Shown here: piece after piece, positions 497 through 19,692 of the stretch
Layout of the letters: every line of letters begins with the position of its first letter
How positions within the stretch are numbered: position 1 is the stretch's first letter
From: a virus
Taxonomy: Duplodnaviria > Heunggongvirae > Uroviricota > Caudoviricetes
Direction: 5' to 3' (one strand)
Length of the DNA: 64,000 bases
Virus record (IMG/VR): IMGVR_UViG_3300046786_000272
Span: 14,062-78,061 of that record
Position numbers and translations under genes: made by a program
Notes under the pieces: model-generated
What the model was told of the DNA's origin: nothing
What the model saw: only the letters and a program-made list of their open reading frames with translations
The model's database searches: none

Positions 497-1090
497 ATGA
501 TTAAGATTTTAGTCCCTTTACCCAAAAAGATTACTATTGCTTGTAGCGGTGGTGTTGATAGTATGGCTGTCGTTGACTTTCTTAAACGAAAGCATGATGT
601 GACGATTGCATACTTCAATCATGGAACTAAACACGGTAGTGAGGCAATGATGTTTGTGGGAAAGTATTGTGCTGATAACAATATTCCCATGATGTACGGG
701 CAATGTCGTAGTGAAAAGGGTGAAAAAGAATCACAGGAAGAATATTGGCGCAGAGAACGATATGACTATCTGAGTGAATTGGGGCCGGTCATTACATGTC
801 ATCACTTAGACGATTGTATAGAAACATATATCTGGTCTAGTCTGCATGGTACTCCTAAAGTCATCCCACTCACACGCAATAACGTGCTTAGACCTTTTCT
901 AACTACACGTAAACAAGAATTTATTTCTTGGTGTGAGCGCCACAATGTATCTTGGATCGAAGACACTTCAAACAAAGACACAAAATATATGCGTAACTAT
1001 GTTCGCAACGAACTAATGCCTCACGCATTGCATGTTAATCCAGGTCTTCACAATGTAGTCAAACGTATTGTTGAAAACAAATCACAATGA
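497..1090 (+). CDS. PP-loop ATPase, TilS (tRNA(Ile)-lysidine synthetase) N-terminal-domain-like; lacks the C-terminal tRNA-binding domains
   Basis: SGGVDS PP-loop; CHHLDDCIETY and SWIEDTSNKDTKYMRNYVRNEL resemble the TilS HHLDDQ.ET / WxEDxSN / RN motifs; only 197 aa. Confidence 0.65.
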   Translation: MIKILVPLPKKITIACSGGVDSMAVVDFLKRKHDVTIAYFNHGTKHGSEAMMFVGKYCADNNIPMMYGQCRSEKGEKESQEEYWRRERYDYLSELGPVITCHHLDDCIETYIWSSLHGTPKVIPLTRNNVLRPFLTTRKQEFISWCERHNVSWIEDTSNKDTKYMRNYVRNELMPHALHVNPGLHNVVKRIVENKSQ

Positions 1091-2629
1091 GTACATTATT
1101 TTACAGTACTCTACTATCTTACTACGATTTTGAGTTCTAAAAAACTCAGCAGGATATTCATTTCTGCGCTTGTTTTCAATGTCATCTTTAGGTACACCGT
1201 ACCACAATAGATTGGGAATCGACCACGTAACTACTTTGCGATGTTCTGCTAGCTTTTCGTTCAGTCTATTTGCATGATACCCTGCACTATCTCTAGTCCA
1301 ATTGTCATTTTTCCAATCAGCAAAAATTGAATTAGGTTGAGATGGCAACATAGTAAACCCATACTTAGATGAATTTTTATCAAACTCTGATTTAATCGAC
1401 CATACAGGACCATCGTCAGGGCCATTTAATCCTAGGCGTTCAAATGTTATACTATGTAAATCATTCTGTATGAACCAATCAGCAGTACTATCTACACTCT
1501 CGATGGTTTCACCTGTAATGCCTACAATAAAGTTAGTATGAATAGGTACTTTGTGATCCCATATATTGTGATACAGTTCAGGAATAAATTCTCTAGCATG
1601 TTTTCCACTCCATGCTTTGCCCACAATGTTACTAGCACTTGGGTGTAATGATTCTAAACCAAAGAACGCTCCATACAATCCTGACTCTTTAAGATAATGT
1701 GCAGTGTCAGGGAAACGATGTACTAAGTCTGCACGAATATAACTTGCGTAGTTGATTTTAAACGGAAGCGTTTGTGTCATGTCATAGAACGCCTTCATTT
1801 TAGTTTCTGTATCGTTAAAGGTATCATCAATGATATAATATGTTGTGGTGCCAAAGTTCTCGTAGTTGTATAGAATTTCTTCTTTTAAAAATTCCATACC
1901 GCGTATATAATCTAATTTCTTTTTACCCAAATGAGGGTATTGGCAAAATCTGCAAGCAAAGATACATCCTCTGCTTATATCCAGTGGTAATGGTTCACCG
2001 GGTAAGATGCCATCTTGTTTAGACCATTTGAAGTCATCTACTTCAATGTTGTATATTGGATTTCTAGCCTTGTTGTATACTGGTCTCTTGTTTGGATCCC
2101 ACCAACATTCTACTGATTCTGGTGGCTCTGAACCTGTAGTTAAGTGATTCATATATTCTAAAAAGATTTCTTCAGATGCTGTAGTATATGACATTACGGT
2201 AGCATCAACTACTCCTAGTCCTGCTAGCTTTTCCGATTTGTAACCACCTAATACTATTTTTATATCAGGAAAGTCTTGCTTAATTCTTTTTAGGATATCT
2301 AAGTTAGATTCAGAGATCCAATACTTTCTACCATTTGAATGTGTATGCACAGACAATGCTAAAAAGGTTGTTGATATTGCCAAAACTTTTGTGTCTTTTG
2401 TGATAAATTTTCTGGTTAATTTTTCTATGATATCACTGGGTAGAAAATCAATGAAGTCGATAACCTGGGATGTATAGTTGTGCTTGCGTAACCAATATGC
2501 AACCTTATAAGGACCGATTGTCCTTGAAACACCCCAATCAACCCCACCATTCCAAAAGATTATATTCATGCAAATATTTAGTATGTGTTTTATGTTACCT
2601 AAAATAGTTGACTTCTCTACACAAGCCAA
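1082..2629 (-). CDS. Cobalamin (B12)-binding radical SAM enzyme
   Basis: CIFACRFC = CxxxCxxC radical-SAM cluster motif preceded by an N-terminal B12-binding-like domain (IKIVLGGYKSEK). 515 aa. Only minus-strand gene in the first 22 kb. Confidence 0.65.
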   Translation of the reverse strand: MACVEKSTILGNIKHILNICMNIIFWNGGVDWGVSRTIGPYKVAYWLRKHNYTSQVIDFIDFLPSDIIEKLTRKFITKDTKVLAISTTFLALSVHTHSNGRKYWISESNLDILKRIKQDFPDIKIVLGGYKSEKLAGLGVVDATVMSYTTASEEIFLEYMNHLTTGSEPPESVECWWDPNKRPVYNKARNPIYNIEVDDFKWSKQDGILPGEPLPLDISRGCIFACRFCQYPHLGKKKLDYIRGMEFLKEEILYNYENFGTTTYYIIDDTFNDTETKMKAFYDMTQTLPFKINYASYIRADLVHRFPDTAHYLKESGLYGAFFGLESLHPSASNIVGKAWSGKHAREFIPELYHNIWDHKVPIHTNFIVGITGETIESVDSTADWFIQNDLHSITFERLGLNGPDDGPVWSIKSEFDKNSSKYGFTMLPSQPNSIFADWKNDNWTRDSAGYHANRLNEKLAEHRKVVTWSIPNLLWYGVPKDDIENKRRNEYPAEFFRTQNRSKIVEYCKIMYSL

Positions 2630-2636
2630 GTATACT
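2608..2636 (+). promoter_or_regulatory. sigma70-like promoter TTGACT-17-TATACT in the divergent intergenic region
   Basis: TTGACT 2608-2613, 17-nt spacer, TATACT 2631-2636, followed by AAGGAG RBS and ATG at 2660. Confidence 0.5.
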
Positions 2637-2659
2637 AACTAGATATTTAAGGAGAACCT

Positions 2660-2926
2660 ATGTCAGACTATAACCGCACTTTCAATAACGAAGCAAAAAT
2701 CAAACTAACACAACTTATCAATGAGGGCATGACTGTAATGCATGAGATTGATACATTGAATGGTGGCTTGAACGACACTATTAAAGCAGTTGCAGAAGAA
2801 TTGGAAATCAAAGCTTCAACATTGAAGAAGGCAGTACGCATTGCACACAAAGCATCATTGGGTCAAACAAATAAGGACCATGATGAACTCAACACCATCT
2901 TGGAGACAGTTGGTAAGACTCTATGA
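2660..2926 (+). CDS. hypothetical protein (88 aa)
   Basis: ORF with AAGGAG RBS; its stop overlaps the start of the next gene. Confidence 0.55.
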   Translation: MSDYNRTFNNEAKIKLTQLINEGMTVMHEIDTLNGGLNDTIKAVAEELEIKASTLKKAVRIAHKASLGQTNKDHDELNTILETVGKTL

Positions 2927-5637
2927 GTTATATTGATGCGATTCACAGTAGAGATGAGGATCGTATTTATGTAGTTGAGAGGGATACTGCCGGCAAACGG
3001 CAGTATAAAGAATTCCCGACTAACTACGTATTCTATTATGCTGATCCTAAGGGTAAGCACCGTAGCATTTACAACGATTCGGTATCTAGATTCAGTACAC
3101 GAAAGCGTACTGAGTTTGAGAAAGAACGTAGGATTCATCATGGCAAGAAATTGTTCGAGAGTGATGTTAACGTTGTATTCCGTTGTCTAAGTGAAAACTA
3201 TTTAGGTGTTGATGCCCCTAAACTACACACATGCTTTTTCGACATTGAAGTAGACTTTGATCCTGAGAAAGGCTTCAGTCCTACAAGTGATCCATTCAAT
3301 CCTGTAACAGCGATTAGTTGTTACTTAGATTGGCTAGATCAATGTGTTACTCTAGTCATTGCGCCTAAGCATATGTCTAAAGAAACGGCGAATGAGATTG
3401 TCAGTGAGTTTGAAAACACTATGCTATTCACAAATGAGAAGGACATGTTTGATGTGTTCTTTCAATTGATTGAAGATGCAGATGTGTTAACTGGTTGGAA
3501 CTCAGAAGGCTATGATATTCCATACATGGTCAATAGAGTTACACGTGTCATGTCGAAAGATGATACTCGCAAGTTCTGCTTGATGGGTCAATTGCCTAAG
3601 CCAAGAGAATACGAACGATTCGGCAAAGTTGAAATGACATATGACTTAGTAGGTCGTATTCACATGGACTATTTACAGTTGTACAAGAAGTATAACTATG
3701 AATCACGACACAGTTACAAACTAGATTCTATCGGTGAGATGGAAGTAGGTGAGAACAAAACACAATATGAAGGTACACTTGACCAGTTGTATAACAAAGA
3801 CTTTAAAAAGTTTATTGAATACAACAGACAAGATACAATGCTTTTAGTGAAGATTCACAACAAGCTTAAGTTTTTAGAGTTGGCAAATCAACTAGCACAC
3901 GAGAATACTGTACTGCTTCCAACAGTTATGGGTTCAGTGGCTATGATTGAAATGGCTATTATGAATGAATCGCACGAGCGAGGATTAGTTGTTCCAGATA
4001 AAAAACGAAAGGTTGAAGATGCAGATGAAATCCAGCAAGCGGCAGGTGCCTTTGTTGCTACGCCGAAACGAGGCATGCACGAATGGGTCGGAGCAGTTGA
4101 CATTAACTCGCTCTACCCCTCGGTTATTCGTGCCCTTAACATGGCCCCAGAAACAATCGTTGCTCAAGTCAGACAAACACTCACTGACCAGTACATGAAA
4201 GAAAAGGGACTCAAACTTGCAATGGAGAAAAAACGTTACAAGGATGGGGACGATGCGGTTGAAGGTGCTATCTTATGGGAAGGATTGTTTGGTGCATTAG
4301 AGTACACAGCAATCATGAGCCAAGAACGTGGTACTATCTTAACTGTAGACTTTGAAGATGGTCGCACTGTGGAAATGAGTGCGGCAGAAGTATGGAAGAT
4401 GATTTTTGATAGTCATAAGCCTTACATGTTATCAGCAAATGGTACAATCTTTACTTACGAGAAAGAGGGTGTGATTCCTGGTCTATTGACTCGTTGGTAC
4501 TCAGATCGTAAGACGATGCAGAAGAAACTAAAAGAAGCTACAACTGATAGTGATAAAGAGTATTGGGATAAGCGTCAATTAGTTCGTAAGATTTTACTTA
4601 ACTCAGCTTACGGTGCGTTGTTGAATGAACACTGTCGTTTCTATGATAAGCGTATCGGTCAAAGTGTTACATTGAGTGGTCGTCAGATTGTTAAACACAT
4701 GATGAGCCAGATCAATCAAACTGTTGCAGGTGAGTATTCACATGAAGGTGAAGCTATTGTATATGGAGATACTGACTCATGTTATTTCTCTGCGTACAAA
4801 ACATTGAAGCCTCAGATTGAATCTGGTGAGTTATCTTGGGACAAAGAGTTGTGCATTGGGTTGTATGATTCAATCGCAGACGAAGCTAATGATAGTTTCC
4901 CAGCATTCATGGAGAAAGCATTTCATGCTCCTCGTAAGAATGGTGAGATTATCAAAGCTGGTCGTGAATTGATCGGTGATCGTAGTATCTTTATCACGAA
5001 GAAGCGTTATGCTATCAACATCTTTGACAAAGAGGGCAAGCGCAAAGACAAAGATAAACCTGGTGATATCAAAGCTATGGGTCTTGACTTGAAACGTGCT
5101 GATACACCTAAGTATGTGCAAGAGTTCTTGTTAGAAGTTCTCAGTATGGTTATTCAACATGGTAAACAACGTGATGAAGTCATTGAGAAGGTAAAAGAAT
5201 TCAAACGTGTACTAGCCGCACAAGACAGTTGGACTAAAGGTTCTCCTAAGGGTGTGAACAAGCTTACATACTACGGTGATCTTGAAGCTAAGAGTGCATC
5301 AGGCAAAGCAAACATGCCTGGTCACGTTCGTGCGGCATTGAACTACAATTACTTGCGTAGAGTAAATGGAGATCAATATAGTCAGAAGATTGTTGATGGT
5401 ATGAAGGTAATCGTTTGTAAGTTAAAACCTAATCCCTTAGGATTTACAAGTGTTGCTTACCCAACTGATGAACTACGATTGCCTCAATGGTTCTGCGAGT
5501 TACCATTCGATGATAAAGAAATGGAAAAGACTCTAGTTGACGAAAAGATTGACAACTTACTGGGCGTGTTAGATTGGGATATTCGTTCTAACACAGATAC
5601 AAATTCAACGTTTGATGATTTATTCACATTCGGTTAA
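2923..5637 (+). CDS. Family B DNA polymerase (T4 gp43-like) with 3'-5' exonuclease domain
   Basis: Exo I motif FFDIEVD; KILLNSAYGAL (KxxxNSxYG); YGDTDS catalytic motif. 904 aa. Confidence 0.92.
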   Translation: MSYIDAIHSRDEDRIYVVERDTAGKRQYKEFPTNYVFYYADPKGKHRSIYNDSVSRFSTRKRTEFEKERRIHHGKKLFESDVNVVFRCLSENYLGVDAPKLHTCFFDIEVDFDPEKGFSPTSDPFNPVTAISCYLDWLDQCVTLVIAPKHMSKETANEIVSEFENTMLFTNEKDMFDVFFQLIEDADVLTGWNSEGYDIPYMVNRVTRVMSKDDTRKFCLMGQLPKPREYERFGKVEMTYDLVGRIHMDYLQLYKKYNYESRHSYKLDSIGEMEVGENKTQYEGTLDQLYNKDFKKFIEYNRQDTMLLVKIHNKLKFLELANQLAHENTVLLPTVMGSVAMIEMAIMNESHERGLVVPDKKRKVEDADEIQQAAGAFVATPKRGMHEWVGAVDINSLYPSVIRALNMAPETIVAQVRQTLTDQYMKEKGLKLAMEKKRYKDGDDAVEGAILWEGLFGALEYTAIMSQERGTILTVDFEDGRTVEMSAAEVWKMIFDSHKPYMLSANGTIFTYEKEGVIPGLLTRWYSDRKTMQKKLKEATTDSDKEYWDKRQLVRKILLNSAYGALLNEHCRFYDKRIGQSVTLSGRQIVKHMMSQINQTVAGEYSHEGEAIVYGDTDSCYFSAYKTLKPQIESGELSWDKELCIGLYDSIADEANDSFPAFMEKAFHAPRKNGEIIKAGRELIGDRSIFITKKRYAINIFDKEGKRKDKDKPGDIKAMGLDLKRADTPKYVQEFLLEVLSMVIQHGKQRDEVIEKVKEFKRVLAAQDSWTKGSPKGVNKLTYYGDLEAKSASGKANMPGHVRAALNYNYLRRVNGDQYSQKIVDGMKVIVCKLKPNPLGFTSVAYPTDELRLPQWFCELPFDDKEMEKTLVDEKIDNLLGVLDWDIRSNTDTNSTFDDLFTFG

Positions 5638-6449: not shown

Positions 6450-6823
6450 TTGACTACGTAGTTGGTGGTGAGTACCTCAATGTTACTAGTAACAAAGGTG
6501 CTCAGCCTTATATCAATATGTCTAGTACTCAGCCTATGATAGGTGCATTGTCATACGACCACAATAGTCAACAGATGAAAGTCTATGATGGTAATGGATG
6601 GATGACTATTGGTGGAGGTAGTGCTACTGTCAATCTATCAGCAAACGCTATCAGTATATTGAAGTGGGCTGAAAAGAAAATGTTCGAAGAATACGAACGT
6701 GAACGATTAGCAGAAACTAATCCTACTATCAAAGACCTTATAGATCAGATTAAACAAAAAGAAGAACAAATTAAAGTTGTTCAAACATTGATTAAAGAAG
6801 AAGAAAAAATTGCAACAAGATAA
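6446..6823 (+). CDS. hypothetical protein with C-terminal coiled-coil
   Basis: ATGA overlap with the upstream gene; K/E-rich heptad-like C-terminus. Confidence 0.5.
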   Translation: MIDYVVGGEYLNVTSNKGAQPYINMSSTQPMIGALSYDHNSQQMKVYDGNGWMTIGGGSATVNLSANAISILKWAEKKMFEEYERERLAETNPTIKDLIDQIKQKEEQIKVVQTLIKEEEKIATR

Positions 6824-8387
6824 TCTATCAGCAAAACAAGATCCTGAATGGGCACTGTTCTTACCAGCAGTCTCTAGCTTTTACATCAGTGGGCTAGGTA
6901 AACAACGTAAAGGTGAAAATTATTTTGACCAGTCACGTATTCCTGCAGGGTTCAACGGTGATGTTGAGAAATTGAACTTCTTGAATAGCAAAGAAGGTGT
7001 CTATACTTATAAGTGGGGTTTGTATTCTGCTGGTCACGCAAATTTAGATCCAACTAAAGATGACTCTAGTGAGAGTATCATCCGTGAGCGTGAAGAAGGT
7101 ACGTTCATGTTGGGTGACTCAGGTGGATTTCAGATTCTCAAATGTCAGTGGCCTGCTGATTGGAAAGATCCTAACTGCCCACGTGCAATGAAGAAACGTA
7201 AAGAAGTTCTCACGTGGATGGATACATACATGGACTATGGTATGTGTTTAGATATTCCATCACAGTCCTTAACAACCTTTAACATTAAGGATCCTAAGAC
7301 TGGTAAGAGTGCTCACGGTATCAGTACTATTGAGGAAGCTATAACTGCTACCCATATCAACAACGAATACTTTATCAAGAATCGTTCGGGTAAATGCAAG
7401 TTCTTAAATGTATTGCAAGGTCGCAATCATACACAAAGTGATGATTGGTATGCTGAAATGAAGAAGTATTGTGATCCAAATATTTACCCAGAGAATCACT
7501 TTAATGGTTGGGCATTCGGTGGTCAGAATAAGATTGATCCTCATTTGATGTTGACCCGTATGGTTGATATTATTCATGATGGATTACTACAAGAAGGTAA
7601 GCATGACTTGATTCACTGCTTGGGTACAAGTATTTTAGAGTATGCTGTATTGTTTACGGATATTCAGAAAGCTATTCGCAAGTATCACAACCCAAAACTT
7701 CAGATTACATTTGACTGTGCAAGCCCATTCTATAGTGCGGCTAAAGGTTTAGGTTATTTCAATACAAGTATTGAACACAATAAAAAGTGGGCATACAGTA
7801 TGGAAAAGACAATGGATAATAAGAAGTATGGCGTACCTCAAACAGGTATGGCAGGTGGTGACCAACGTAAGTTTAGTGATGCTATTATTAATGACGGCAT
7901 CCATAAACTCTTTACAGATAGTCCAGTAACTGATAAACTAGTCGTTAAGGACGTGTGTTATAGGGGTCAAGGCTTCTTAGGCGCACATAATAAAGAAACA
8001 AAAACTAGTTGGGATACTTTGAGCTACACATTGATTCAGTCTCATAATGTTTGGATGCATATGAATGCAGTTCAAGAGGCTAATCGTCAATATCAGAACG
8101 GTGTTGTTCCTAAGATGCTAGTTCATAAATTAGAAGGTGACAAATTCTTTAGTAATCTTGTTGATGAAATCTTTAGTAAGAAAACTAAACAAGAAGCACT
8201 AGATGTTATTAACTATCACAATAGCTATTGGAAGCAGTTTCAATCAGGTAGTCAAGGTATTAGCGGTAAGAAAACTGAGAACGCTATGACTATGTTTGAC
8301 CAATTGTTTGAAGTAGCTAGTGAGCCTGAAGTAGACGAAATCGTTGAAGATAGCGATGATGCAATGTTAGAAGTATTGGGGGATTAA
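6810..8387 (+). CDS. tRNA-guanine transglycosylase superfamily protein, DpdA-like (candidate DNA 7-deazaguanine transglycosylase)
   Basis: FMLGDSGGFQIL matches the TGT/DpdA catalytic LTDSGGFQ motif; 525 aa; no CxCxxC zinc motif seen. Confidence 0.6.
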   Translation: MQQDNLSAKQDPEWALFLPAVSSFYISGLGKQRKGENYFDQSRIPAGFNGDVEKLNFLNSKEGVYTYKWGLYSAGHANLDPTKDDSSESIIREREEGTFMLGDSGGFQILKCQWPADWKDPNCPRAMKKRKEVLTWMDTYMDYGMCLDIPSQSLTTFNIKDPKTGKSAHGISTIEEAITATHINNEYFIKNRSGKCKFLNVLQGRNHTQSDDWYAEMKKYCDPNIYPENHFNGWAFGGQNKIDPHLMLTRMVDIIHDGLLQEGKHDLIHCLGTSILEYAVLFTDIQKAIRKYHNPKLQITFDCASPFYSAAKGLGYFNTSIEHNKKWAYSMEKTMDNKKYGVPQTGMAGGDQRKFSDAIINDGIHKLFTDSPVTDKLVVKDVCYRGQGFLGAHNKETKTSWDTLSYTLIQSHNVWMHMNAVQEANRQYQNGVVPKMLVHKLEGDKFFSNLVDEIFSKKTKQEALDVINYHNSYWKQFQSGSQGISGKKTENAMTMFDQLFEVASEPEVDEIVEDSDDAMLEVLGD

Positions 8388-8388
8388 C

Positions 8389-8601
8389 ATGCCATATAAA
8401 AATCGTATTAAAACACTAGAAGAATCACATAGACTAGTTGACAATCAGTTGTTCCAATTAGAGAAGTCAGGTAGCAACGATTCTGATAAAATACAGAAAC
8501 TACGTGAAACAAAAGATAAGTATCTCACCGATCTGCGTATCATGCGCCGAGCACAATGGGATCATGACCATGAAACAATTGACTATGAGGATGACAGATG
8601 A
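8389..8601 (+). CDS. hypothetical protein (70 aa), DUF465/YdcH-like
   Basis: Short coiled-coil protein with pattern L..H..LD..I..LEK....D...L..LK..K..L.D. Confidence 0.45.
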   Translation: MPYKNRIKTLEESHRLVDNQLFQLEKSGSNDSDKIQKLRETKDKYLTDLRIMRRAQWDHDHETIDYEDDR

Positions 8602-9053
8602 TTGAACAACGTAACCAAGTAATGTTAGAAACACGAACACGTATCAAAGATAAAGCCAAGCGTATGATCTTTGTTACTTTTCAAAAAGAAGGTATTCATA
8701 AATACCCGGCAGCCGCATCAGACTTTAACCTCAAAACAGGTGACCAGTATGATGTTAGCTTTTTAGGAACTCCACATCGTCACATCTTTCACTTTAATGT
8801 GGCGATTGAAGTATTTCACAACGACAGGGATATTGAGTTTATTCAATTCAAACGTTGGCTAGAGAATCAATACTCTAACGGCATCTTAGAATTGAATTAC
8901 AAAAGTTGTGAAATGATTAGTGATGACCTCTATGATGTTATTGCTAGTAGATATCCAGAACGTGAAATCATTATCACAGTCTCCGAAGACGGTGAGAATG
9001 GTGCTACGATTCAATATAAACTTAACCAACCTTATCAACAACTCGCTATTTAA
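8598..9053 (+). CDS. hypothetical protein (151 aa)
   Basis: ATGA overlap with the upstream gene. Confidence 0.5.
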   Translation: MIEQRNQVMLETRTRIKDKAKRMIFVTFQKEGIHKYPAAASDFNLKTGDQYDVSFLGTPHRHIFHFNVAIEVFHNDRDIEFIQFKRWLENQYSNGILELNYKSCEMISDDLYDVIASRYPEREIIITVSEDGENGATIQYKLNQPYQQLAI

Positions 9054-9066: not shown

Positions 9067-9273
9067 ATGGCAAAACCTACTTTTCAACCTAATCCCCGCG
9101 TCCGTCAGATTTTTGAAGACCTAGAAAAATATCTAGAATTCTGTCAGGATTTCGGTTACAAGTTTGATGAATCCACGATGTATGACATGCGTAGTTTTGC
9201 ATATCGTCAGCATCAAAAGAACTTGGCAGGTAAGCCTGCTAAGGACATGTGGCAGGAAGCAATTATCCGATGA
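9067..9273 (+). CDS. hypothetical protein (68 aa)
   Basis: ATG at 9067 preceded by AAGGA. The listed ORF 8920..9273 extends upstream without an RBS and overlaps the previous gene. Confidence 0.45.
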   Translation: MAKPTFQPNPRVRQIFEDLEKYLEFCQDFGYKFDESTMYDMRSFAYRQHQKNLAGKPAKDMWQEAIIR

Positions 9274-10031
9274 AGATAGTTGTAGTCACTGGTGGATTTG
9301 ATCCACTACACAGCGGTCACATTGAATACTTCAAGGCTGCTAAACAACTCGGTGATAAACTAATCGTTGGGTTGAACAGTGACGAATGGCTGACTCGTAA
9401 GAAGGGTCAGCCTTTCATGCCTATGGAAGAACGACTAGCTATCATAAGTCATCTAGCAATGGTAGACGGTACCGTTAAATTTAACGATGACGATAATTCT
9501 AGTATAGATGCAATTCATAAAACAAGAACATCATTTCCAGACGCAGAAATTATCTTTGCGAATGGTGGTGATAGAACATCATATAATATACCCGAAATGT
9601 CAGAGAAAGATGTTGTCTTTAAGTTTGGTGTAGGCGGTGAGAACAAAATGAATAGTAGTTCTTGGATATTACGTGAATGGAAACAACCAAAAACATTGCG
9701 TGACTGGGGATACTATCGTATACTACATGATGTGCCCGGCTGTAAAGTAAAAGAATTAACAGTAGAGCCAGGTAAGAGTTTAAGTATGCAAAAACATTTT
9801 AAACGTCATGAATTTTGGCATGTTACTGAAGGTAAATGTATACTTGATATGAAATTACCCAGTGGATATAGTTTGCCACCTATGGATCTTGTAACACACA
9901 GTCAAGTACAAATTCCACAGGGTGATTGGCATAGACTAAGTAATCCATATAGTACACCATGTCGTATCGTAGAGATACAATATGGTGATGAATGTATTGA
10001 AGAAGACATAGAAAGAAAAAATAATGCGTAG
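9270..10031 (+). CDS. Bifunctional sugar-phosphate nucleotidyltransferase (RfaE-domain-II / HldE-C cytidylyl/adenylyl-transferase-like) fused to a PMI-type cupin domain
   Basis: IVVVTGGFDPLHSGHIEYF (HxGH nucleotidyltransferase motif, RfaE-II-like); C-terminal WGYYRIL...VKELTVEPGKSLSMQKHFKRHEFWHVTEG is cupin-like as in ManC / type II PMI. Confidence 0.65.
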   Translation: MKIVVVTGGFDPLHSGHIEYFKAAKQLGDKLIVGLNSDEWLTRKKGQPFMPMEERLAIISHLAMVDGTVKFNDDDNSSIDAIHKTRTSFPDAEIIFANGGDRTSYNIPEMSEKDVVFKFGVGGENKMNSSSWILREWKQPKTLRDWGYYRILHDVPGCKVKELTVEPGKSLSMQKHFKRHEFWHVTEGKCILDMKLPSGYSLPPMDLVTHSQVQIPQGDWHRLSNPYSTPCRIVEIQYGDECIEEDIERKNNA

Positions 10032-11211
10032 ACTTATTTACATGGGACTAGAGCCCTATAAAGCACGATACACATTGCAACTACAGCAGTGGAATACACG
10101 TGTATTTGAAAAACGCAAAATTACATACGTAGTCGTTCCGGGTGAAACACTTGATGATGAAGAAGCTATTGTTACTGGTCAAGTACTAGATGCACATGGT
10201 CGTAGTTATTTTGCCATGAGCCAGATGATGAATCTTGTTATGTGGATGAAGCAAGGTAAAATCAATAATGAAGACGTTATCTATTTTGAAGACATGTTTC
10301 AACCGGGCTTTGAGAGCTTGCCTTATATTCTTAATCAAGTCCCTGCATCGCATCGTCCGAAGATTTATGTTAGGTGTTTGGCGCAGTCAATTGATCCTGA
10401 CGATTTTGTTCACGTTTGGGGGATGTCCAAATGGATGGGACTCTATGAACAGATGGTTTGTGAGGCCGTACTACAATCTGGCGGTGCAGTTCTTGCGACT
10501 AACGAAGAAATGGTCATCAACATGAAGATTGCAGGTTGGACAGCACCGATCTACAATATCAGTGGTTTAGCATTTGGCATGGATGAAGTACGTGAACGTG
10601 TAAATCATCAACTTAAACCATTTGAAGAACGAGCTATGCGTGTTGTATTCTCAGCACGTTGGGATCAAGAGAAACAACCAGACTTCTATATGGATCTGAT
10701 TGAAGAATGGCATGAGCGTTATGGCAACAACGTTGAGTTCTGTGTTTGCTCAGGTAGTAAATTAAAAAGCAATAATGATAGCTATATGGCTCGTACCCGT
10801 GACTTAGTAAGTCGTGGTTTATTGACATTGCATGAGGATTTGAATAAGAATGATTACTACAATATTGTTAATAATAGTCGTGTTGTCTTTAATTGTGCTT
10901 TACAAGACTGGGTTTCGAACACCGTTAGCGAAGCCGATGCTCTTGGTTGTAATGTTCTCTATCCTGCTTATCGTAGCTTCCCTGAGACATTCGCCAACGA
11001 TGCATCTAGACTTTACGTTCCTTGGTCTATAGATGACGCTATTAACAAACTACATCCATTATTGAGAGACCCTCATTATAATCAAGGTGCTATCGCAAAA
11101 CATAACGATGGTACCATAGACAGAATTTGTGACATCCTTGAAGGTAAGGGTGAACAATATTTGCGAATGTCAACTGACTATCGCAAGCATACACGTGAAG
11201 CAAAATATTAA
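10024..11211 (+). CDS. putative GT-B-fold glycosyltransferase; weak resemblance to T4 DNA alpha/beta-glucosyltransferases
   Basis: N-terminus MRRLIYMGLEPYKARYT resembles T4 AGT/BGT starts; size and sugar-metabolism context fit; similarity is weak. Confidence 0.35.
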   Translation: MRRLIYMGLEPYKARYTLQLQQWNTRVFEKRKITYVVVPGETLDDEEAIVTGQVLDAHGRSYFAMSQMMNLVMWMKQGKINNEDVIYFEDMFQPGFESLPYILNQVPASHRPKIYVRCLAQSIDPDDFVHVWGMSKWMGLYEQMVCEAVLQSGGAVLATNEEMVINMKIAGWTAPIYNISGLAFGMDEVRERVNHQLKPFEERAMRVVFSARWDQEKQPDFYMDLIEEWHERYGNNVEFCVCSGSKLKSNNDSYMARTRDLVSRGLLTLHEDLNKNDYYNIVNNSRVVFNCALQDWVSNTVSEADALGCNVLYPAYRSFPETFANDASRLYVPWSIDDAINKLHPLLRDPHYNQGAIAKHNDGTIDRICDILEGKGEQYLRMSTDYRKHTREAKY

Positions 11212-11779: not shown

Positions 11780-12460
11780 ATGAGTTATAATAAAACAAAA
11801 ACAGATCCAGCATTGGGTCAACGAGTGCATGAGCACTTAGTCAAAATGGGAGTCGAAACCCCTACATTTCAAACATCAATGGATCGTAAAGATAAGATAG
11901 CAGAGATTGAAAAGTCTTTCAGTCATATCATGCAAGTCTTGGGACTTGATTTAGAAGATGATAGTCTTATGGAAACACCCAAGCGTGTTGCTAAGATGTA
12001 TGTCAATGAAATCTTTTGGGGTCTAGATTATGAAGCTTTTCCAAAGTGTACAACCGTTGATAATAAGATGCAGTATAATGAAATGGTCGTGGAACGTAAT
12101 GTTAACGTCCAAAGTAACTGTGAACATCACTTTGTCGTTATTGACGGCCTCGCTACTGTGGCATATGTTCCTAAGCAAAGAGTCCTCGGACTATCTAAAA
12201 TCAATCGAATCGTGGAATACTTTTCTAAGCGACCACAGATTCAAGAGCGTCTTACTGAACAAATCTTTCACACCCTACAGTTCATCCTTGATACAGAAGA
12301 CGTTGCAGTTATGATTGACGCACAACACTATTGCGTTAAGAGTCGAGGTGTAGAAGATACAGGTAGTTCAACTGTTACTTGTCGCTTAGGTGGTGGTTTC
12401 AAAACTGACCCTGCGGCACGACAAGAGTTCTTGCAGATTGCAAACAAGGGTTGCAAATGA
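11780..12460 (+). CDS. folE: GTP cyclohydrolase I
   Basis: NCEHHFVVIDG (CEHH zinc motif), 226 aa, FolE-like throughout. Confidence 0.85.
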   Translation: MSYNKTKTDPALGQRVHEHLVKMGVETPTFQTSMDRKDKIAEIEKSFSHIMQVLGLDLEDDSLMETPKRVAKMYVNEIFWGLDYEAFPKCTTVDNKMQYNEMVVERNVNVQSNCEHHFVVIDGLATVAYVPKQRVLGLSKINRIVEYFSKRPQIQERLTEQIFHTLQFILDTEDVAVMIDAQHYCVKSRGVEDTGSSTVTCRLGGGFKTDPAARQEFLQIANKGCK

Positions 12461-13257: not shown

Positions 13258-13435
13258 ATTAATTGATGCAGTGGTAGCATTGCATGAAATAAAGAGATTA
13301 GTGGAAGAAGAATGTGGTATCTGTAGAGTAAGTATAGAGATAGAACGATGTGCTAACCAACTACATGAAATGTCATTGCAAGATGCAAAGAATAGTATAA
13401 TTGCAGGACAAGTTATTCAGAAAGCTAAAGAATGA
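13244..13435 (+). CDS. hypothetical protein (63 aa)
   Basis: ORF overlapping its neighbours by a few nt. Confidence 0.4.
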   Translation: MRNLKLIDAVVALHEIKRLVEEECGICRVSIEIERCANQLHEMSLQDAKNSIIAGQVIQKAKE

Positions 13436-13902
13436 TTTTCAATCATGTTAAAAAACTTAAACAAGAAGGCAAGAGAATTGGCATCACGTTTAGTACGTTC
13501 GATATGTTACATGCGGGACATATTGCTATGCTTAGTGAAGCGAAGAATCACTGCGATTATCTTATTGCAGGACTTCAAACAGACCCTACAATCGACCGTC
13601 CAGACACTAAAAATAAACCTATTCAAAGTATTGTGGAACGTCAAATCCAACTGGCTGCGTGTCGTTACGTTGACGAAGTGGTTGTGTATAGTACAGAGCA
13701 GGACCTCGCTGATCTCTTACTCATACTTCCGGTGGATGTCAGAATCCTTGGTGTTGAATATGCCGATACAGAGTTCTCGGGTAAAAGTGAGTGCGAACTC
13801 AGATCCATCAGTCTTGTCTTTAATGGTAGAGATCACTCCTTTAGCTCCAGTAGCCTACGTAAACGTGTCTATGATAGTGAAACCAAAAAGCGAGGACAAT
13901 AA
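13432..13902 (+). CDS. Cytidylyltransferase-family nucleotidyltransferase (RfaE-II/TagD-like)
   Basis: GITFSTFDMLHAGHIAMLSEAK HxGH motif; 156 aa. Confidence 0.7.
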   Translation: MIFNHVKKLKQEGKRIGITFSTFDMLHAGHIAMLSEAKNHCDYLIAGLQTDPTIDRPDTKNKPIQSIVERQIQLAACRYVDEVVVYSTEQDLADLLLILPVDVRILGVEYADTEFSGKSECELRSISLVFNGRDHSFSSSSLRKRVYDSETKKRGQ

Positions 13903-15313: not shown

Positions 15314-15817
15314 ATGTCATTACAACCAGTCAGTTATAAATTTACAAGTACTAAAGAGTACCACGATTCATTCCCTTGCGCTTATCGCCAATGGAGAGCA
15401 GATAGTCACTGCAATATGATTCACGGTTACAGTTTCAGTATGAAGTTCTATTTTGGTACAAACGACCTAGATGTTCGCAATTGGGCGGCAGACTATGGTG
15501 GACTAAAAGAATTGAAAAAGATTCTTGAGGATCAATTTGACCACACATTACTAGTCGCACAAGACGATCCCGAACTTGAAACATTCAAGATGCTACAAGA
15601 AAAGAAATTAGCTAAACTAACTATTCTTCCACGAATCGGTTGCGAGAGTTTAGCAGACATGCTTTACAAGTATGTCAATGGCGTTTACATCCCTGACATG
15701 TGGGGTCAAGGTGAAGCAGAACGTCTATGGTGTTATCGTGTAGAAGTACGTGAGACACAAAGCAACATGGCTTTCCGTGAAGGTCATCGTGAATGGAATG
15801 AGGATTTGCTTGCGTGA
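15314..15817 (+). CDS. queD: 6-carboxy-5,6,7,8-tetrahydropterin synthase (QueD / PTPS family)
   Basis: HCNMIHGYSF resembles the QueD CxxxHGH zinc motif; PTPS-like length and context with FolE/QueE. Confidence 0.65.
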   Translation: MSLQPVSYKFTSTKEYHDSFPCAYRQWRADSHCNMIHGYSFSMKFYFGTNDLDVRNWAADYGGLKELKKILEDQFDHTLLVAQDDPELETFKMLQEKKLAKLTILPRIGCESLADMLYKYVNGVYIPDMWGQGEAERLWCYRVEVRETQSNMAFREGHREWNEDLLA

Positions 15818-16578: not shown

Positions 16579-16580
16579 CT

Positions 16581-17663
16581 GTGCAGTTTGTACTAAAATC
16601 AGAAAGTGACTATAAAAGACCAGAGTCGTATTTAAAAGACTTTGGATGTTTTAGAATATCACGTTACTTGGAAATTCATACTAACGGGGACGTAAGTATA
16701 TGCTGTCATTCTTGGTTACCTGAATTTTGCGGTAATATACTCACTGATACAGTTGAAGATATTCTTAATAATTCTAATAGGCTGTCTATGATAAAAGACA
16801 TGGACAGTGGAGAATTCACTAATTGCAATGACCATTGTCCGTTTATTAGTGCTATGCTTTCTGGTAAACAAGAATCAGTTAATTTCATAGTACCACTACG
16901 TGCATTACCCTTTCACAAGAAGAACAAGCCGCTAGTGATTAACTTTAGTTATGACCAGTCGTGTAACTTACAATGCCCTAGCTGTAGAAATTCTTTAATA
17001 CTTCATAAAGTAGGAGAGAATAACTTGTTAGTTAGAGTTCATGCAGGGGTAGAAAAACTAGTTGATTATCTATTATCACAGGGTGAAAATCTTGTTTTGA
17101 ATATTACTGGCAGCGGTGATGCTTTTGCTAGCCCCACATATTGGCAGTATTTAAAAACACTATCAACTAAAAATATAGGAGCTAATCTCCAAATCAAATT
17201 GATGACTAACGGTATCTTAATGACTGAAGCACGATGGAATGATATAAAGCCGTTATGGAATAATATTACTCACATAGGGGTAAGCATTGATGCGTTTACT
17301 AATGAAACTTACTCAAAGATAAGAGTCAATGGATCTAAAGCTACACTAGATAAAAATTTAAAAATTCTCAATGAACTCATTAAGAATAAAAGCTTTACAA
17401 GATTAACAGGTTGGCAAACTAACTATACTGTGCAAAAAGATAACTACAAAGAGCTTATAGATTATGTTAATTGGCAACTGTCATATGACCAACTGTCAAC
17501 TATATTTTTTAACTGTATAGATCAATGGGGTCATTTGAATGACATGACATTCAACCAATTAAATATAAATCAAGAAGACAAACTACTATTAAAAGAAATA
17601 TTATCTAACGACATTTTTAATAATAAAAAAGTAATGTTAGGGAACCTAAACTCATTTAGATAA
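16581..17663 (+). CDS. Radical SAM enzyme with atypical N-terminal Cys-rich extension
   Basis: CNLQCPSC (CxxxCxxC) near residue 128; additional N-terminal cysteines (ICCHSW..FCGN..CNDHCPF); GTG start. Confidence 0.55.
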   Translation: MQFVLKSESDYKRPESYLKDFGCFRISRYLEIHTNGDVSICCHSWLPEFCGNILTDTVEDILNNSNRLSMIKDMDSGEFTNCNDHCPFISAMLSGKQESVNFIVPLRALPFHKKNKPLVINFSYDQSCNLQCPSCRNSLILHKVGENNLLVRVHAGVEKLVDYLLSQGENLVLNITGSGDAFASPTYWQYLKTLSTKNIGANLQIKLMTNGILMTEARWNDIKPLWNNITHIGVSIDAFTNETYSKIRVNGSKATLDKNLKILNELIKNKSFTRLTGWQTNYTVQKDNYKELIDYVNWQLSYDQLSTIFFNCIDQWGHLNDMTFNQLNINQEDKLLLKEILSNDIFNNKKVMLGNLNSFR

Positions 17664-17671
17664 GGCATATT

Positions 17672-18847
17672 ATGAACAAAACAACAAAAAATGTAGCAGT
17701 GATCGGTGCAGGCATCACTGGCATCACCACAGCATATTATCTTGCTAAACAAGGTTATCAAGTAACTGTCTACGAACAAGAACCACATGCGGCAATGCGT
17801 ACTAGCTTTGCTAATGGTGGTCAAGTATCAGTAAGCAACAGTGAAGTTTGGACTACATGGAGCAACGTCAAGAAGGGCATTAAGTGGCTCTTTAAGAAAG
17901 ATGCCCCATTACTGATTCGTCCTCGCTTAGACTTTAAGCAATGGAAGTGGATCGCTAAGTTCTTGTATAACACTGCTACCAATCAGTATGAAAAGAATAC
18001 TAGCGAAACAATCAAGATGGGTCTGGAGTCTAGTAAATTGTACAAAGAAATTATGTACACTGAGAAACTAAGTTTTGACCAATCACCATCGGGTATTCTT
18101 CACTTCTATAAAGATGAACAATACTTTGAGGCTGCGAAACAAGCACAATATATCTATCGTAAGAATGGTTGTGAGTGGGATATTGTTGATACCCAACGAG
18201 TTAAAGAACTAGACAGTACACTAGAGAACGTTGAAGGTATTGTCGGTGGTGCTTGGACATTGAGTGATTGGACAGGTGACATTCACAAGTTTTGTATTGA
18301 ACTTGAAAAAGTATTAGTAAAAAAATACGGTGTAGTGTTTAACTATAATTGGAAGATCAATCATATTGAAGAAGTTTCATTCTATGATGCTGTAGTGATT
18401 TCGAATGGTGTAGGTAGCACTCAATTAGCAAAGACGGTAGGAGATAGTATTGATGTTTATCCCGTAAAAGGATACAGCATCACTATCAATAATGTAGATA
18501 AGAAACATCTACCTGTAGTCAGTCTGTTAGATGACCAAGCTAAGATTGTTACAAGTAGTTTGGGTAATCGTTTTCGTGTTGCGGGTACTGCTGAACTAGC
18601 GGGTGAGAACTATGATATTCGTCATGACCGTATCAAACCATTACTTGATTGGGTAAGAACTAACTTCCCAAACATGAGCACACATGATTATACTAGCTGG
18701 GCATGTCTCAGACCAATGACTCCTAATATGATGCCTATTACCAAAAGAAGTGACAAGAACAGTAAAGTATATTATAATACAGGACACGGGCACTTAGGCT
18801 GGACCTTAGCACCATATACAGCAAAACTTATTTCGGAACAAGTATGA
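17672..18847 (+). CDS. FAD-dependent oxidoreductase (DAO / glycine-D-amino-acid oxidase family)
   Basis: VAVIGAGITGITTAYYLAKQGYQVTVYE dinucleotide-binding fold; 391 aa. Confidence 0.75.
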   Translation: MNKTTKNVAVIGAGITGITTAYYLAKQGYQVTVYEQEPHAAMRTSFANGGQVSVSNSEVWTTWSNVKKGIKWLFKKDAPLLIRPRLDFKQWKWIAKFLYNTATNQYEKNTSETIKMGLESSKLYKEIMYTEKLSFDQSPSGILHFYKDEQYFEAAKQAQYIYRKNGCEWDIVDTQRVKELDSTLENVEGIVGGAWTLSDWTGDIHKFCIELEKVLVKKYGVVFNYNWKINHIEEVSFYDAVVISNGVGSTQLAKTVGDSIDVYPVKGYSITINNVDKKHLPVVSLLDDQAKIVTSSLGNRFRVAGTAELAGENYDIRHDRIKPLLDWVRTNFPNMSTHDYTSWACLRPMTPNMMPITKRSDKNSKVYYNTGHGHLGWTLAPYTAKLISEQV

Positions 18848-19692
18848 GTCATTTAAAAATATCAGAGTTATTTTACAGCATTCAAGGTGAGGGTAAATTC
18901 ATGGGAGTTCCCTCTGTGTTTTTACGAACATATGGATGTAATTTTACATGCGGTGGATTCGGCATGCCTAAAGGAGAATTGAGTAGTGAGAGAGATGTTA
19001 TTGCGATTAAAGCAGAAGATTATACAGATTATAAATCCTTACCACTTGTCAGTACGGGCTGTGACTCTTATGCATCTTGGGACCCTGCTTTTAAACACCT
19101 TAGTCCTGTTCTCGATACCGATGTTATTGCTGACAGCATTGTTAGTACACTTCCTAGAGGTCGTTGGATGGATGAGCACTTGGTTATCACGGGCGGTGAA
19201 CCTCTTCTTGGATGGCAAAGAGCGTATCCAGACTTACTTTCACATGAAAAAATGAAAAGTCTTAAAGAGATGACGTTTGAAACGAACGGCACTCAGCGCA
19301 TCAGTGAAGAATTTGGTAAATACTTGCATCAATGGCAACGCAACAGAGCAAAAGACGCTATCACATTCAGTGTCAGTCCTAAACTCAGCATTAGTGGTGA
19401 GAAGTGGGAAGAAGCAATCTGTCCTGATATAGTATCTCATTATAAACAATATGGCTTTGTTTACTTGAAGTTTGTTGTTGCAACTAAGGAAGATGTTAAA
19501 GAAGCTGAACAAGCAGTTGACGAATATCGCAAACGAGGTTTTACAGGTCCTGTGTATTTGATGCCGTGCGGTGGTGTTGAGAGTTTGTATAGCTTGAATG
19601 CACGTAATGTAGCAATCGAAGCAATGAATAGAGGATGGCGTTACAGTGATAGATTGCAAGTGCCGTTGTTTAAAAATGAATGGGGAACATGA
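18844..19692 (+). CDS. queE: Radical SAM 7-carboxy-7-deazaguanine synthase (QueE)-like
   Basis: FLRTYGCNFTCGGFG cluster region, QueE-like size, position in the FolE/QueD context; motif is a variant. Confidence 0.55.
   Translation: MSHLKISELFYSIQGEGKFMGVPSVFLRTYGCNFTCGGFGMPKGELSSERDVIAIKAEDYTDYKSLPLVSTGCDSYASWDPAFKHLSPVLDTDVIADSIVSTLPRGRWMDEHLVITGGEPLLGWQRAYPDLLSHEKMKSLKEMTFETNGTQRISEEFGKYLHQWQRNRAKDAITFSVSPKLSISGEKWEEAICPDIVSHYKQYGFVYLKFVVATKEDVKEAEQAVDEYRKRGFTGPVYLMPCGGVESLYSLNARNVAIEAMNRGWRYSDRLQVPLFKNEWGT

Follow-up and report, generated by a model that had tools for sequence, protein, structure and literature searches.

A QueC-less 7-deazaguanine gene cluster with DpdL and a long-form DpdA-like transglycosylase, probably for DNA modification, in a jumbo phage

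Related 7-deazaguanine systems

A route to modified phage DNA that dispenses with QueC and includes DpdL is already known and has been published for other phages (PMC10516641). One of these, the Cellulophaga phage phiST, encodes FolE-QueD-QueE-DpdL-DpdA3, and its DNA is ~100% 2'-deoxy-7-deazaguanosine (dDG). DpdL, defined by the signature LxxxHRHxF, is the proposed 7-carboxy-7-deazaguanine (CDG) decarboxylase and marks the QueC-less branch to dDG; its activity is a prediction, and when the DpdL and DpdA pairs of phiST and of the Acidovorax phage ACP17 were co-expressed in Escherichia coli, no dDG was obtained, for which the authors suspected missing enzymes (PMC10516641). The DNA analyzed here, a 64-kb stretch (the window) of a tailed-phage genome of ~350 kb (related contigs reach 348 to 360 kb), follows the same QueC-less logic. 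The relevant genes are as follows.

497..1090, + strand: TilS N-domain-only PP-loop ATPase, 197 aa (TIGR02432)
2923-5637, + strand: family-B DNA polymerase (Pfam PolB; context only)
5718-6449, + strand: homolog of a virion structural protein, 243 aa, p243 (homology to PA5oct gp170; context only)
6810..8387, + strand: long-form DpdA-like DNA-guanine transglycosylase, 525 aa, of the TGT/DpdA superfamily, a distant sister of DpdA2
8598..9053, + strand: DpdL homolog, a T-fold QueD paralog and proposed CDG decarboxylase (blastp; signature L-GTP-HRH-I-F)
9249..10031, + strand: sugar-nucleotide enzyme combining a nucleotidyltransferase with a mannose-6-phosphate-isomerase-type cupin (PF01467, PF01050, TIGR02199, TIGR01479)
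10024..11211, + strand: GT-B/GT4-type glycosyltransferase that co-occurs with DpdL, candidate extra step or accessory factor
11780..12460, + strand: GTP cyclohydrolase I (FolE), GTP to H2NTP (NF006824, PF01227)
13432..13902, + strand: RfaE-domain-II-like nucleotidyltransferase (PF01467, 1.6e-12; TIGR02199, 76 bits, below cutoff)
15314..15817, + strand: QueD-type 6-carboxytetrahydropterin synthase, CxxxHGY variant, H2NTP to CPH4 (PF01242, phrog_2389)
18844..19692, + strand: QueE-type radical-SAM CDG synthase, CPH4 to CDG (phrog_2076, motifs)

As in phiST, FolE, a QueD with the CxxxHGY motif, QueE, DpdL (35% identical), and a TGT-superfamily enzyme are clustered near the replicative polymerase. 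However, phiST, with a genome of 78 kb, has a PolIII-type polymerase and lacks a GT4 partner, and its DpdA3 is short (259 versus 525 aa) and marginally related to the window enzyme. The closest published architecture is that of the T4-like ACP17, which combines DpdL and DpdA with the absence of QueC (PMC10516641) and encodes, in one cluster next to PolB, QueD (55% identical), FolE (61%), DpdA, a GT4-like protein (24%), DpdL (57%), and QueE. Its 424-aa DpdA, however, is clearly a DpdA2 (35% identical to that of VH7D) and is linked to the window enzyme only at the profile level.

Among cultured phages, the same long-form transglycosylase has its closest counterpart (33% identity) in the Pseudomonas jumbo phage PA5oct, where the transglycosylase, GT4, DpdL (56%), and QueE (gp168, gp167, gp166, and gp162) follow PolB and the structural protein in the same order, whereas QueD is encoded elsewhere in the genome. 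PA5oct also shares the short TilS-like protein (39%), and its DNA is G-modified, as judged from experimental restriction resistance. The products gp168, gp167, and gp166 are annotated as “hypothetical,” and only QueE and a PTPS are named in the preprint.

The nearest named subfamily to the window transglycosylase is DpdA2 of the vibriophages nt-1 and VH7D (PMC6884629, PMC10516641), likewise from myoviruses of the T4 superfamily. The conserved His of DpdA1 and bDpdA is lacking in both, and both are invisible to Pfam TGT, yet they are undetectable to each other by BLAST, and the C-terminal helical region is longer in the window enzyme. In the DpdA2 phages, QueC is accompanied by QueF or ArcS, and 0.01 to 0.1% of G, a low level, is replaced by preQ0, preQ1, or G+; the window, in contrast, has DpdL and none of these three genes. 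The bacterial DpdA of Salmonella Montevideo (PDB 7ui4; PMC10164549), 13% identical to the window enzyme, inserts preQ0 and needs the ATPase DpdB, no homolog of which was seen in the window; its His181 is replaced by a TGT-like Gln in the window family. The T4-like Campylobacter phage CP220 provides a precedent for complete G replacement with FolE, QueD, and QueE and no QueC, but its product is dADG and its enzyme a DpdA3, and no CP220-type match to the window transglycosylase was found.

On balance, we consider it reasonably probable that the window encodes a DpdL-branch system for post-replicative replacement of guanine, with dDG DNA as its product. The likeliest route is GTP to CPH4 to CDG to 7-deazaguanine to DNA.

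Synthesis of 7-carboxy-7-deazaguanine

Gene conservation was surveyed in 80 related loci, the denominators below being the relatives informative for each gene. The preliminary description of this DNA had proposed a phage-encoded 7-deazaguanine pathway with FolE, QueD-like, and QueE-like proteins, a transglycosylase, and a PP-loop ATPase; all five ORFs were found with coordinates exactly as listed above, and profile matches bear out the pathway. FolE scores 327 bits with NF006824 (cutoff, 202) and 1e-61 with PF01227, is 61% identical to its ACP17 counterpart, and is present in 41/44 relatives. The QueD-like protein, found in 30 of 31 relatives, matches PF01242 (1e-16) and phrog_2389 (9e-38), falls below the NCBIfam QueD cutoff, and shares 55% identity with the QueD of ACP17 and 35% with that of phiST, both of which carry the same CxxxHGY motif. 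The QueE-like protein matches phrog_2076 (7e-53), with partial matches of ~50 bits, below the cutoffs, to the TIGR QueE models. It is 34% identical to the nt-1/KVP40 QueE and 47% to that of Synechococcus phage BUCT-ZZ01, and it contains FYSIQGEG and three cluster cysteines spaced CxxxC-(36 aa)-C, as in the nt-1 and PA5oct QueE. Together, these three enzymes would convert GTP to CDG, although the QueD and QueE scores below the NCBIfam equivalog cutoffs weigh against the dDG interpretation.

DpdL and the QueC-less branch

In blastp searches, the ORF at 8598-9053 matched phiST gp040 (35% identity, E = 4e-16), a 127-aa ORF of ACP17 (57%, 1e-45), and PA5oct gp166 (56%), and alignment shows that it carries the exact published LxxxHRHxF signature. 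A DpdL gene lies beside the transglycosylase gene in all 67 informative relatives, and the motif is present in 71 of the 80 loci. By homology, DpdL would strip the carboxyl group from CDG to yield 7-deazaguanine (DG), so that QueC would not be needed; the null result of co-expression in E. coli counts against this reading of DpdL. The preliminary description overlooked this ORF and offered a choice between dCDG or dADG in the DNA and a non-orthologous QueC, a dichotomy that gives way once the published dDG branch is considered.

The glycosyltransferase partner

The catalytic residues of the GT4 protein are intact, and it is conserved, with the sugar-nucleotide genes, alongside DpdL. These genes would be superfluous for plain dDG, which counts against that product. 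The RfaE-II-like nucleotidyltransferase, present in 36/36 relatives, possibly activates a sugar for the glycosyltransferase; the nucleotidyltransferase-cupin fusion is found in 33 of 61 relatives, in only part of the clade.

The base might be a further elaborated, for example, glycosylated, 7-deazapurine, with GT4, fed by the phage nucleotidyltransferases and an epimerase, acting on the base or on the DNA after DpdL and DpdA; alternatively, the transglycosylase might strictly require GT4 in a non-catalytic or priming role. We regard this as rather unlikely, although several observations speak for it. GT4 accompanies DpdL in five independent lineages (the window clade, PA5oct, ACP17, L094, and L097), is absent from QueC-type loci, and occurs in 51 of 53 close relatives; the cluster holds a GalE-like epimerase in addition to the RfaE-II-like nucleotidyltransferases; the enzymes suspected to be missing when ACP17 DpdL and DpdA failed to produce dDG (PMC10516641) would fit; and PA5oct is attacked by END nucleases, which sense hypermodified DNA. 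Against this, the C7 of 7-deazaguanine offers no obvious hydroxyl or amine handle for glycosylation, and phiST attains 100% dDG without such a glycosyltransferase. Moreover, GT4 folds are generic, the best matches being small-molecule or lipid glycosyltransferases, sugar genes of jumbo phages often serve surface glycans, and the co-occurrence sample is small (5 versus 2 lineages).

Absence of QueC and the PP-loop protein

The lack of QueC in the window, noted from the outset, holds up. The SGGxDS motif occurs once in all six frames, inside the ORF at 497-1090; Pfam screens of the other ORFs detected no TGT, QueC, or QueF; and tblastn and phmmer searches of the window with phage QueC, Gat-QueC, and QueF gave no match at E < 0.06. 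Neither QueC nor QueF was found in any of the 80 relatives, and QueC was likewise not detected in complete PA5oct-group and ACP17 genomes, in a search whose positive control matched. QueC could still be encoded elsewhere in this particular ~350-kb genome, outside the 64-kb window. With no QueC, QueF, ArcS, or Gat-QueC present, the original label “preQ0/archaeosine-type” does not fit.

It is decidedly improbable that the pathway ends at CDG, with dCDG in the DNA, or that the PP-loop ATPase stands in for QueC, either through amidation of CDG or dCDG, which would give ADG or dADG, or by producing preQ0. The absence of QueC from the window would agree with either variant, as would CP220, whose pathway stops at CDG and whose DNA has 100% dADG; PP-loop enzymes share substrate adenylation with QueC; and the short PP-loop protein, encoded in 32 of 43 informative relatives, is essentially confined among cultured phages to the PA5oct group, which also has the module. 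However, the universally conserved DpdL provides a direct use for CDG. The PP-loop protein, correctly described at first as TilS-type, passes the TilS N-domain equivalog-domain cutoff (TIGR02432, 121 bits; cutoff, 93.6) but matches the QueC-like phrog at only 3.7e-4 over 40 residues. It is missing from ACP17 and from the other 11 relatives, and in PA5oct its gene lies among early genes, ~55 kb from the module. On these grounds it is an improbable QueC substitute and probably not part of the 7-deazaguanine system.

The transglycosylase and its substrate

The 525-aa protein is recognized as a member of the TGT/DpdA superfamily, as first suggested, by fold and by profile-profile comparison, and not by standard HMM libraries. 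In hhalign comparisons, it matches VH7D DpdA2 (95.6%, E = 1e-8, over the DSGG, LD-IP, QG, HxLG, and D-S motifs) and ACP17 DpdA (95.8%). The match to phiST DpdA3 is only 56% (E = 1e-4); because the window enzyme is not of the DpdA3 type, the phiST chemistry may not transfer. Among the catalytic residues, D103 of the DSGGF motif is the acid/base and D302 the nucleophile, D148 serves base recognition, and Q203 and the G237/G238 loop complete the set. The three Asp residues, invariant among 47 diverse members and alignable at the motif level to E. coli Tgt, match the D95/D130/D256 active site of DpdA (PMC10164549).

A DpdA-like gene is present in all 80 relatives, and the order PolB, p243, transglycosylase is kept across deep lineages (PA5oct, Vibrio phage 2.275.O, L093, L097, and L098); gp170, the PA5oct homolog of p243, was identified as a “structural protein” by ESI-MS/MS. 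In Vibrio phage 2.275.O, this transglycosylase family occurs together with both QueC and QueF; in L093 it accompanies QueC, and in PA5oct, L094, and L097 it accompanies DpdL. It is therefore the constant partner of 7-deazaguanine synthesis genes.

The protein is most likely a TGT/DpdA-type enzyme acting on DNA; in E. coli, plasmid DNA acquires deazaguanines through the action of VH7D DpdA2 (PMC10516641, Table 2). It is highly improbable that these genes instead serve tRNA modification or produce a small molecule, either a pterin glycoside or a deazapurine nucleoside, with the TGT-like protein acting on RNA: tRNA is the classical TGT substrate, and a phosphoribosyltransferase gene adjoining FolE and QueE in L094 recalls deazapurine nucleoside pathways, but the best structural match of the protein is the DNA enzyme DpdA, its nearest profile is DpdA2, validated on DNA, its gene is fixed beside that of the DNA polymerase in all lineages, no tRNA genes were found in the window, PA5oct DNA resists restriction at G-containing sites, and pterins need neither QueE nor DpdL.

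Implications

In the dDG interpretation, the transglycosylase would exchange guanine in phage DNA for DG by the double-displacement mechanism of TGT, with D302 as the nucleophile and D103 as the general acid/base, and the resulting dDG DNA would resist host restriction. What is new here is the long-form transglycosylase family, very divergent, environmentally abundant, unannotated, and everywhere labeled “hypothetical,” together with its glycosyltransferase companion, a GT4 enzyme that partners DpdL in five lineages. This conserved partner may point to a further step that modifies the base or to a missing cofactor.

A probable QueC-less module of the DpdL branch

The window carries a QueC-less 7-deazaguanine DNA modification module of the DpdL branch, for which 2'-deoxy-7-deazaguanosine (dDG) is the most probable product, a reading we hold at somewhat better than even confidence. 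All ORFs named in the preliminary description lie where it had placed them, and its observation of a 7-deazaguanine pathway without QueC was borne out; its interpretation, which called for either a carboxy- or amido-deazaguanine in the DNA or a non-orthologous enzyme for the missing step, was right only in part. The apparent paradox is dissolved by the published DpdL branch, and the finding is to that extent largely explained. What is new here is a very large unannotated DpdA2-like family, recognized in jumbo phages, and a DpdL-branch-specific partner, the glycosyltransferase GT4. The genes concerned are listed below, together with their occurrence in 80 related loci.

Genes of the module and its surroundings, and their occurrence across 80 IMG/VR loci from this clade (loci with the gene/loci long enough to show it)
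1082-2629, B12-radical-SAM protein: 1/47
6810-8387, plus strand, transglycosylase (long-form, DpdA-like, 525 aa): 80/80
8598-9053, plus strand, DpdL homolog (151 aa): 67/67
10024-11211, GT-like gene (GT4): 51/53
11780-12460, FolE: 41/44
13432-13902, nucleotidyltransferase: 36/36
14214-15236, 340-aa ORF: 0/35
15314-15817, QueD: 30/31
15814-16578, methyltransferase: 0/30
16581-17663, SPASM radical-SAM protein: 1/29
17672-18847, DadA-like oxidoreductase: 3/29
18844-19692, QueE: 26 loci
QueC, QueF, and Gat-QueC: 0/80

The key gene, passed over in the preliminary description, is the small ORF located two genes downstream of the transglycosylase. It has no HMM match and is 35% identical to phiST gp040 (E = 4e-16), 57% identical to an ORF of phage ACP17, and 56% identical to PA5oct gp166. 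Its LGTPHRHIF stretch exactly reproduces LxxxHRHxF, the signature that takes the place of the CxxxHGH motif of QueD. Cui et al. used this signature to define DpdL, a paralog of QueD with the proposed function of decarboxylating 7-carboxy-7-deazaguanine (CDG) to 7-deazaguanine (PMC10516641). The protein from the window is accordingly a proposed CDG decarboxylase, an activity that is a proposal for the founding members as well; a literature search on DpdL turned up a single relevant paper, from 2023. Phage phiST encodes FolE, QueD, QueE, DpdL, and a DpdA, has no QueC, and replaces approximately 100% of its G with dDG (PMC10516641). Given this precedent and the presence of DpdL, the lack of QueC is the expected state of a known branch rather than a gap. 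The same combination of DpdL with DpdA, FolE, QueD, and QueE, without QueC, is found in the window, in its 80 relatives, and in the complete genomes of PA5oct and ACP17, the latter being the closest published architecture to that of the window.

FolE is canonical, as first described (NF006824, 327 bits, cutoff 202; TIGR00063, 241 bits, cutoff 182). The QueD-like ORF matches PF01242 (1e-16) and a "QueD-like" PHROG (9e-38) and scores 36 bits against TIGR03367, below the cutoff of 89. Its CNMIHGY motif keeps the catalytic Cys and has Tyr in place of the second His of CxxxHGH. This C-x3-H-G-Y variant is common to the QueDs of phiST and ACP17, and the ORF shares 45% identity with QueD from Iggy, a dPreQ0 phage, which suggests that it is the usual form of QueD in these phages. 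The QueE-like ORF matches phrog_2076 over its full length (7e-53) and the TIGR QueE models at about 50 bits, below their cutoffs of 200 to 300. It contains FYSIQGEG and the cysteines C32, C36, and C73, spaced as CxxxC-(36 aa)-C, the same arrangement as in the QueEs of PA5oct and of nt-1, a phage with proven deazaguanine DNA (PMC6884629). The nt-1 genes are scattered, with neither DpdA nor QueC in view around QueE.

The absence of QueC from the window was confirmed in several ways. The six-frame scan revealed a single SGGxDS motif, that of the PP-loop protein (497-1090), and no PP-loop protein combining a QueC model match with a Zn-binding C-terminal Cys cluster was found in the window. A Pfam screen of all remaining window ORFs yielded no QueC, QueF, or TGT, and in direct searches phage QueC and Gat-QueC gave best E values of at least 0.06, while QueF and YhhQ gave nothing. 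Cultured relatives were searched genome-wide with a chimeric query that joined their own DpdA-like proteins to phage QueC. All 11 complete genomes of the PA5oct group, Phosso, and ACP17 matched the DpdA-like part only and had no QueC match; in the control, Vibrio phage 2.275.O, the query matched QueC as well as the DpdA-like protein.

The PP-loop protein is indeed of the TilS type (TIGR02432, 121.4 bits, cutoff 93.6) and consists of the catalytic domain alone, with 197 aa and no tRNA-binding domains (full-length model NF007942, 64 bits, cutoff 606). PA5oct gp064 is similarly short. In cultured phages, such TilS_N-only proteins are essentially restricted to the PA5oct group (39%); two uncultured phages of ~640 kb (LR756502 and LR745206) also encode one. 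ACP17 lacks the gene, as do 11 of the 43 informative close relatives. In PA5oct, ~55 kb separate it from the module, and it is surrounded by small early genes, with tRNA-Ser genes ~6 kb away. The window itself has no tRNA genes. The TilS_N match, the patchy presence, and the distance from the PA5oct module make a role as a QueC surrogate unlikely, and with DpdL present, an amidating enzyme is not needed.

The transglycosylase and its probable relation to DpdA2

The preliminary description had called ORF 6810-8387 TGT/DpdA-like and had proposed profile searches as the check. The superfamily placement stands, on the strength of fold, hhalign comparisons, and conserved residues; recognition by standard HMMs, taken by itself, would have put the protein outside the superfamily. 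No significant match was obtained in Pfam, NCBIfam, or PHROG scans, nor with phmmer or a profile of 47 diverse family members against PDB sequences, and of the methods tried, only fold comparison and hhalign detected the relationship. PF01702 does not match the window protein and hits one of the 47 members at an E value of 0.088. It likewise misses the published DpdA3 of phiST and the DpdA of ACP17, so that its failure is a sign of divergence and does not argue against membership in the TGT/DpdA superfamily.

The protein has the TGT-type (β/α)8 barrel fold. Positions S73, D103-S104-G106, D148/P150, H269/G272, and D302 are invariant in the alignment of diverse members, the three active-site aspartates (D103, D148, and D302) being shared by all 47. 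Compared with E. coli Tgt alone, the family aligns at an hhalign probability of 85%, with the pairs LGDSGGFQ/LTDSGGFQ, MCLDIP/MIFDEC, NVLQG/GIIQG, GWAFGG/GYAVGG, IHCLG/YLMGVG, and ITFDCASP/DMFDCVMP. This motif-by-motif correspondence points to D103 as the general acid/base, D148 as the base-recognition Asp, and D302 as the nucleophile, roles that have been defined for DpdA and TGT (PMC10164549).

Within the superfamily, the nearest profile matches are of the DpdA2 type. The family aligns with VH7D DpdA2 (gp012) at 95.6% hhalign probability (E = 1.1e-8, 182 columns) and with ACP17 DpdA at 95.8%; these two proteins are 35% identical to each other (E = 2e-51). VH7D gp012 belongs to a type defined on nt-1 (PMC6884629), and in E. 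coli it inserts preQ0 and preQ1 into plasmid DNA (PMC10516641, Table 2). The family lacks the His that is conserved in DpdA1 and bacterial DpdA, with LNVLQG (Q203) aligned to GIIQG of Tgt; the lack of this His is a described feature of DpdA2 (PMC6884629), which the two groups thus share. There is no BLAST-level similarity to the DpdA2s of nt-1 and VH7D, and tblastn with the window protein matches only PA5oct, Phosso, and Vibrio 2.275.O. Judged from these alignments, the enzyme is best described as a putative deep, long-form, distant sister group of DpdA2. Membership in DpdA3 was rejected, with 56% hhalign probability over 82 columns for phiST CGPG_00065 (gp042) and an E value of 0.08 with the family HMM. 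DpdA1 of phage 9g shows no relation to the family at the profile level.

The enzyme is predicted, on indirect grounds, to exchange guanine in DNA rather than in tRNA: it resembles a DNA enzyme most closely in structure and DpdA2 most closely at the profile level, its gene is linked to PolB, and the DNA of PA5oct resists restriction.

Accessory genes and genomic setting

Several enzymes encoded near the module were considered as core components and rejected, each being present in no more than 3 of 29 to 47 informative relatives. The B12-radical-SAM protein, the methyltransferase, the SPASM radical-SAM protein, the DadA-like oxidoreductase, and the 340-aa ORF are variable accessories. Three of them form an island between QueD and QueE (15814-18847) that comprises a SAM methyltransferase, a radical-SAM protein with an N-terminal SPASM/twitch domain, and a DadA-like FAD oxidoreductase (NF009074, 456 bits); the B12-binding radical-SAM protein, which is PhpK-like, is encoded upstream. 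A locus whose transglycosylase is 95% identical (L001) keeps an ORF at the methyltransferase position and both the SPASM and B12 radical-SAM genes and lacks the DadA-like gene. The island may contribute chemistry specific to individual strains.

The window also encodes a sugar-nucleotide toolkit (9249-10031, 13432-13902, 20453-21796, and 21790-22632) that may serve either DNA or glycan modification. It consists of two RfaE-domain-II-like nucleotidyltransferases, one of which carries a fused PMI-type cupin, together with a GalE-like epimerase and a second glycosyltransferase-type protein, which is GT1-like. GT4 co-occurs strictly with DpdL and the DpdA2-like enzyme in jumbo/T4-like phages. It is conceivable, if rather improbable, that it belongs to the DNA modification machinery, in which case the base would be an undescribed sugar-bearing or otherwise elaborated 7-deazapurine, with the sugar possibly supplied by the phage nucleotidyltransferases and epimerase, or that it is a missing factor for DpdL and DpdA. 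The predicted structure of GT4 was obtained from a shallower alignment, without the rows for PA5oct, ACP17, and the distant DpdL-type locus L094, hence its pLDDT of 78. Were GT4 indeed part of the modification machinery, a widespread uncharacterized DNA chemistry would be at hand, since the clade is very abundant in metagenomes; GT4 is also a candidate for the factor lacking in failed heterologous reconstitutions of dDG. As noted, plain dDG remains the favored product.

The source of the window is a jumbo T4-superfamily myovirus, of whose genome the window covers less than one-fifth. It has 38% GC, with almost all genes on the plus strand, and its PolB (2923-5637) is 44 to 50% identical to those of Sinorhizobium phage Phosso, Agrobacterium phage Atu_ph07, and RaK2-like phages. 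INPHARED contains no near-identical DNA (no megablast match to 2923-8387), exact protein matches of window genes are confined to contigs of 3 to 4 kb, and relatives with 79 to 95% protein identity are found on metagenomic contigs of up to 348 to 360 kb. The proteostasis set is unusually complete, with full-length Hsp70/DnaK (PF00012, 1e-259), ClpX with a zinc finger, ClpP (2e-81; an ORF within 44 to 64 kb), a ClpS adaptor, Hsp20, and a GroES-like Cpn10 (44340-46184, 50828-52024, 52126-52569, 52595-52900, and 11419-11712). DNA repair and stress genes code for a UvdE UV endonuclease, an ATP-dependent DNA ligase, a SprT-like protease, an Fe/Mn superoxide dismutase, an Hc1 histone-like protein, MazG, and dCMP deaminase (26079-27140, 41992-43362, 53984-54475, and other ORFs in the 22- to 64-kb region).

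The family across phage lineages

At 90% identity, the transglycosylase family falls into more than 6,300 clusters, and at 50% into 811; two distant members, P0141 and P0175, are absent from IMG/VR. The window (2923-8387), PA5oct, Vibrio 2.275.O, and the metagenomic loci L093, L097, and L098 share the gene order PolB, ~245-aa virion protein, (small ORF), transglycosylase. This synteny, also listed for L004, is kept across very divergent jumbo phages, and an inserted ORF interrupts PolB in three cases: PA5oct (a Hef-like homing endonuclease), L093 (a nucleoside deoxyribosyltransferase-like ORF), and L098.

What follows the transglycosylase differs between lineages. In Vibrio 2.275.O, where it matches the family profile at 1e-101, the succeeding genes encode QueF, a YhhQ-type transporter, QueC, an Ntn amidohydrolase, FolE, QueE, and QueD; in L093, they encode QueC, FolE, and QueE. 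DpdL accompanies the transglycosylase in PA5oct, L094, L097, and the window. A single transglycosylase lineage is thus linked to different branches of 7-deazaguanine synthesis, which is strong guilt-by-association support for the role assigned to the enzyme and implies shifts in substrate specificity. The gene set of 2.275.O (L012, 15210-18295), a cultured jumbo vibriophage whose transglycosylase is annotated as hypothetical, includes QueF and QueC, a YhhQ-type transporter for precursors, and an Ntn amidohydrolase encoded separately, and it predicts dPreQ1- or dG+-type DNA. L094 (5962-7777) carries a phosphoribosyltransferase (PF00156) and a kinase-like ORF between FolE and QueE; this arrangement hints at a nucleotide-level (PRPP-dependent) deazapurine route in some lineages.

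PA5oct, the closest cultured carrier of a window-type transglycosylase, is the only experimental anchor for the family. It is targeted by nucleases that sense hypermodified DNA, in a study that names QueE and a PTPS in this phage and no transglycosylase (PMC12191111). All public copies of the family, including PA5oct gp168, are labeled hypothetical. The G modification of this therapeutic phage now has a proposed genetic explanation in gp168 (transglycosylase), gp166 (DpdL), gp167 (GT4), and gp162 (QueE). A predicted function is assigned to a large "hypothetical" family, the DpdA "signature" is extended to jumbo phages that dominate some metagenomes, and a lineage that is paired with QueC and QueF in some phages and with DpdL in others offers a natural system for the study of specificity shifts in DpdA.
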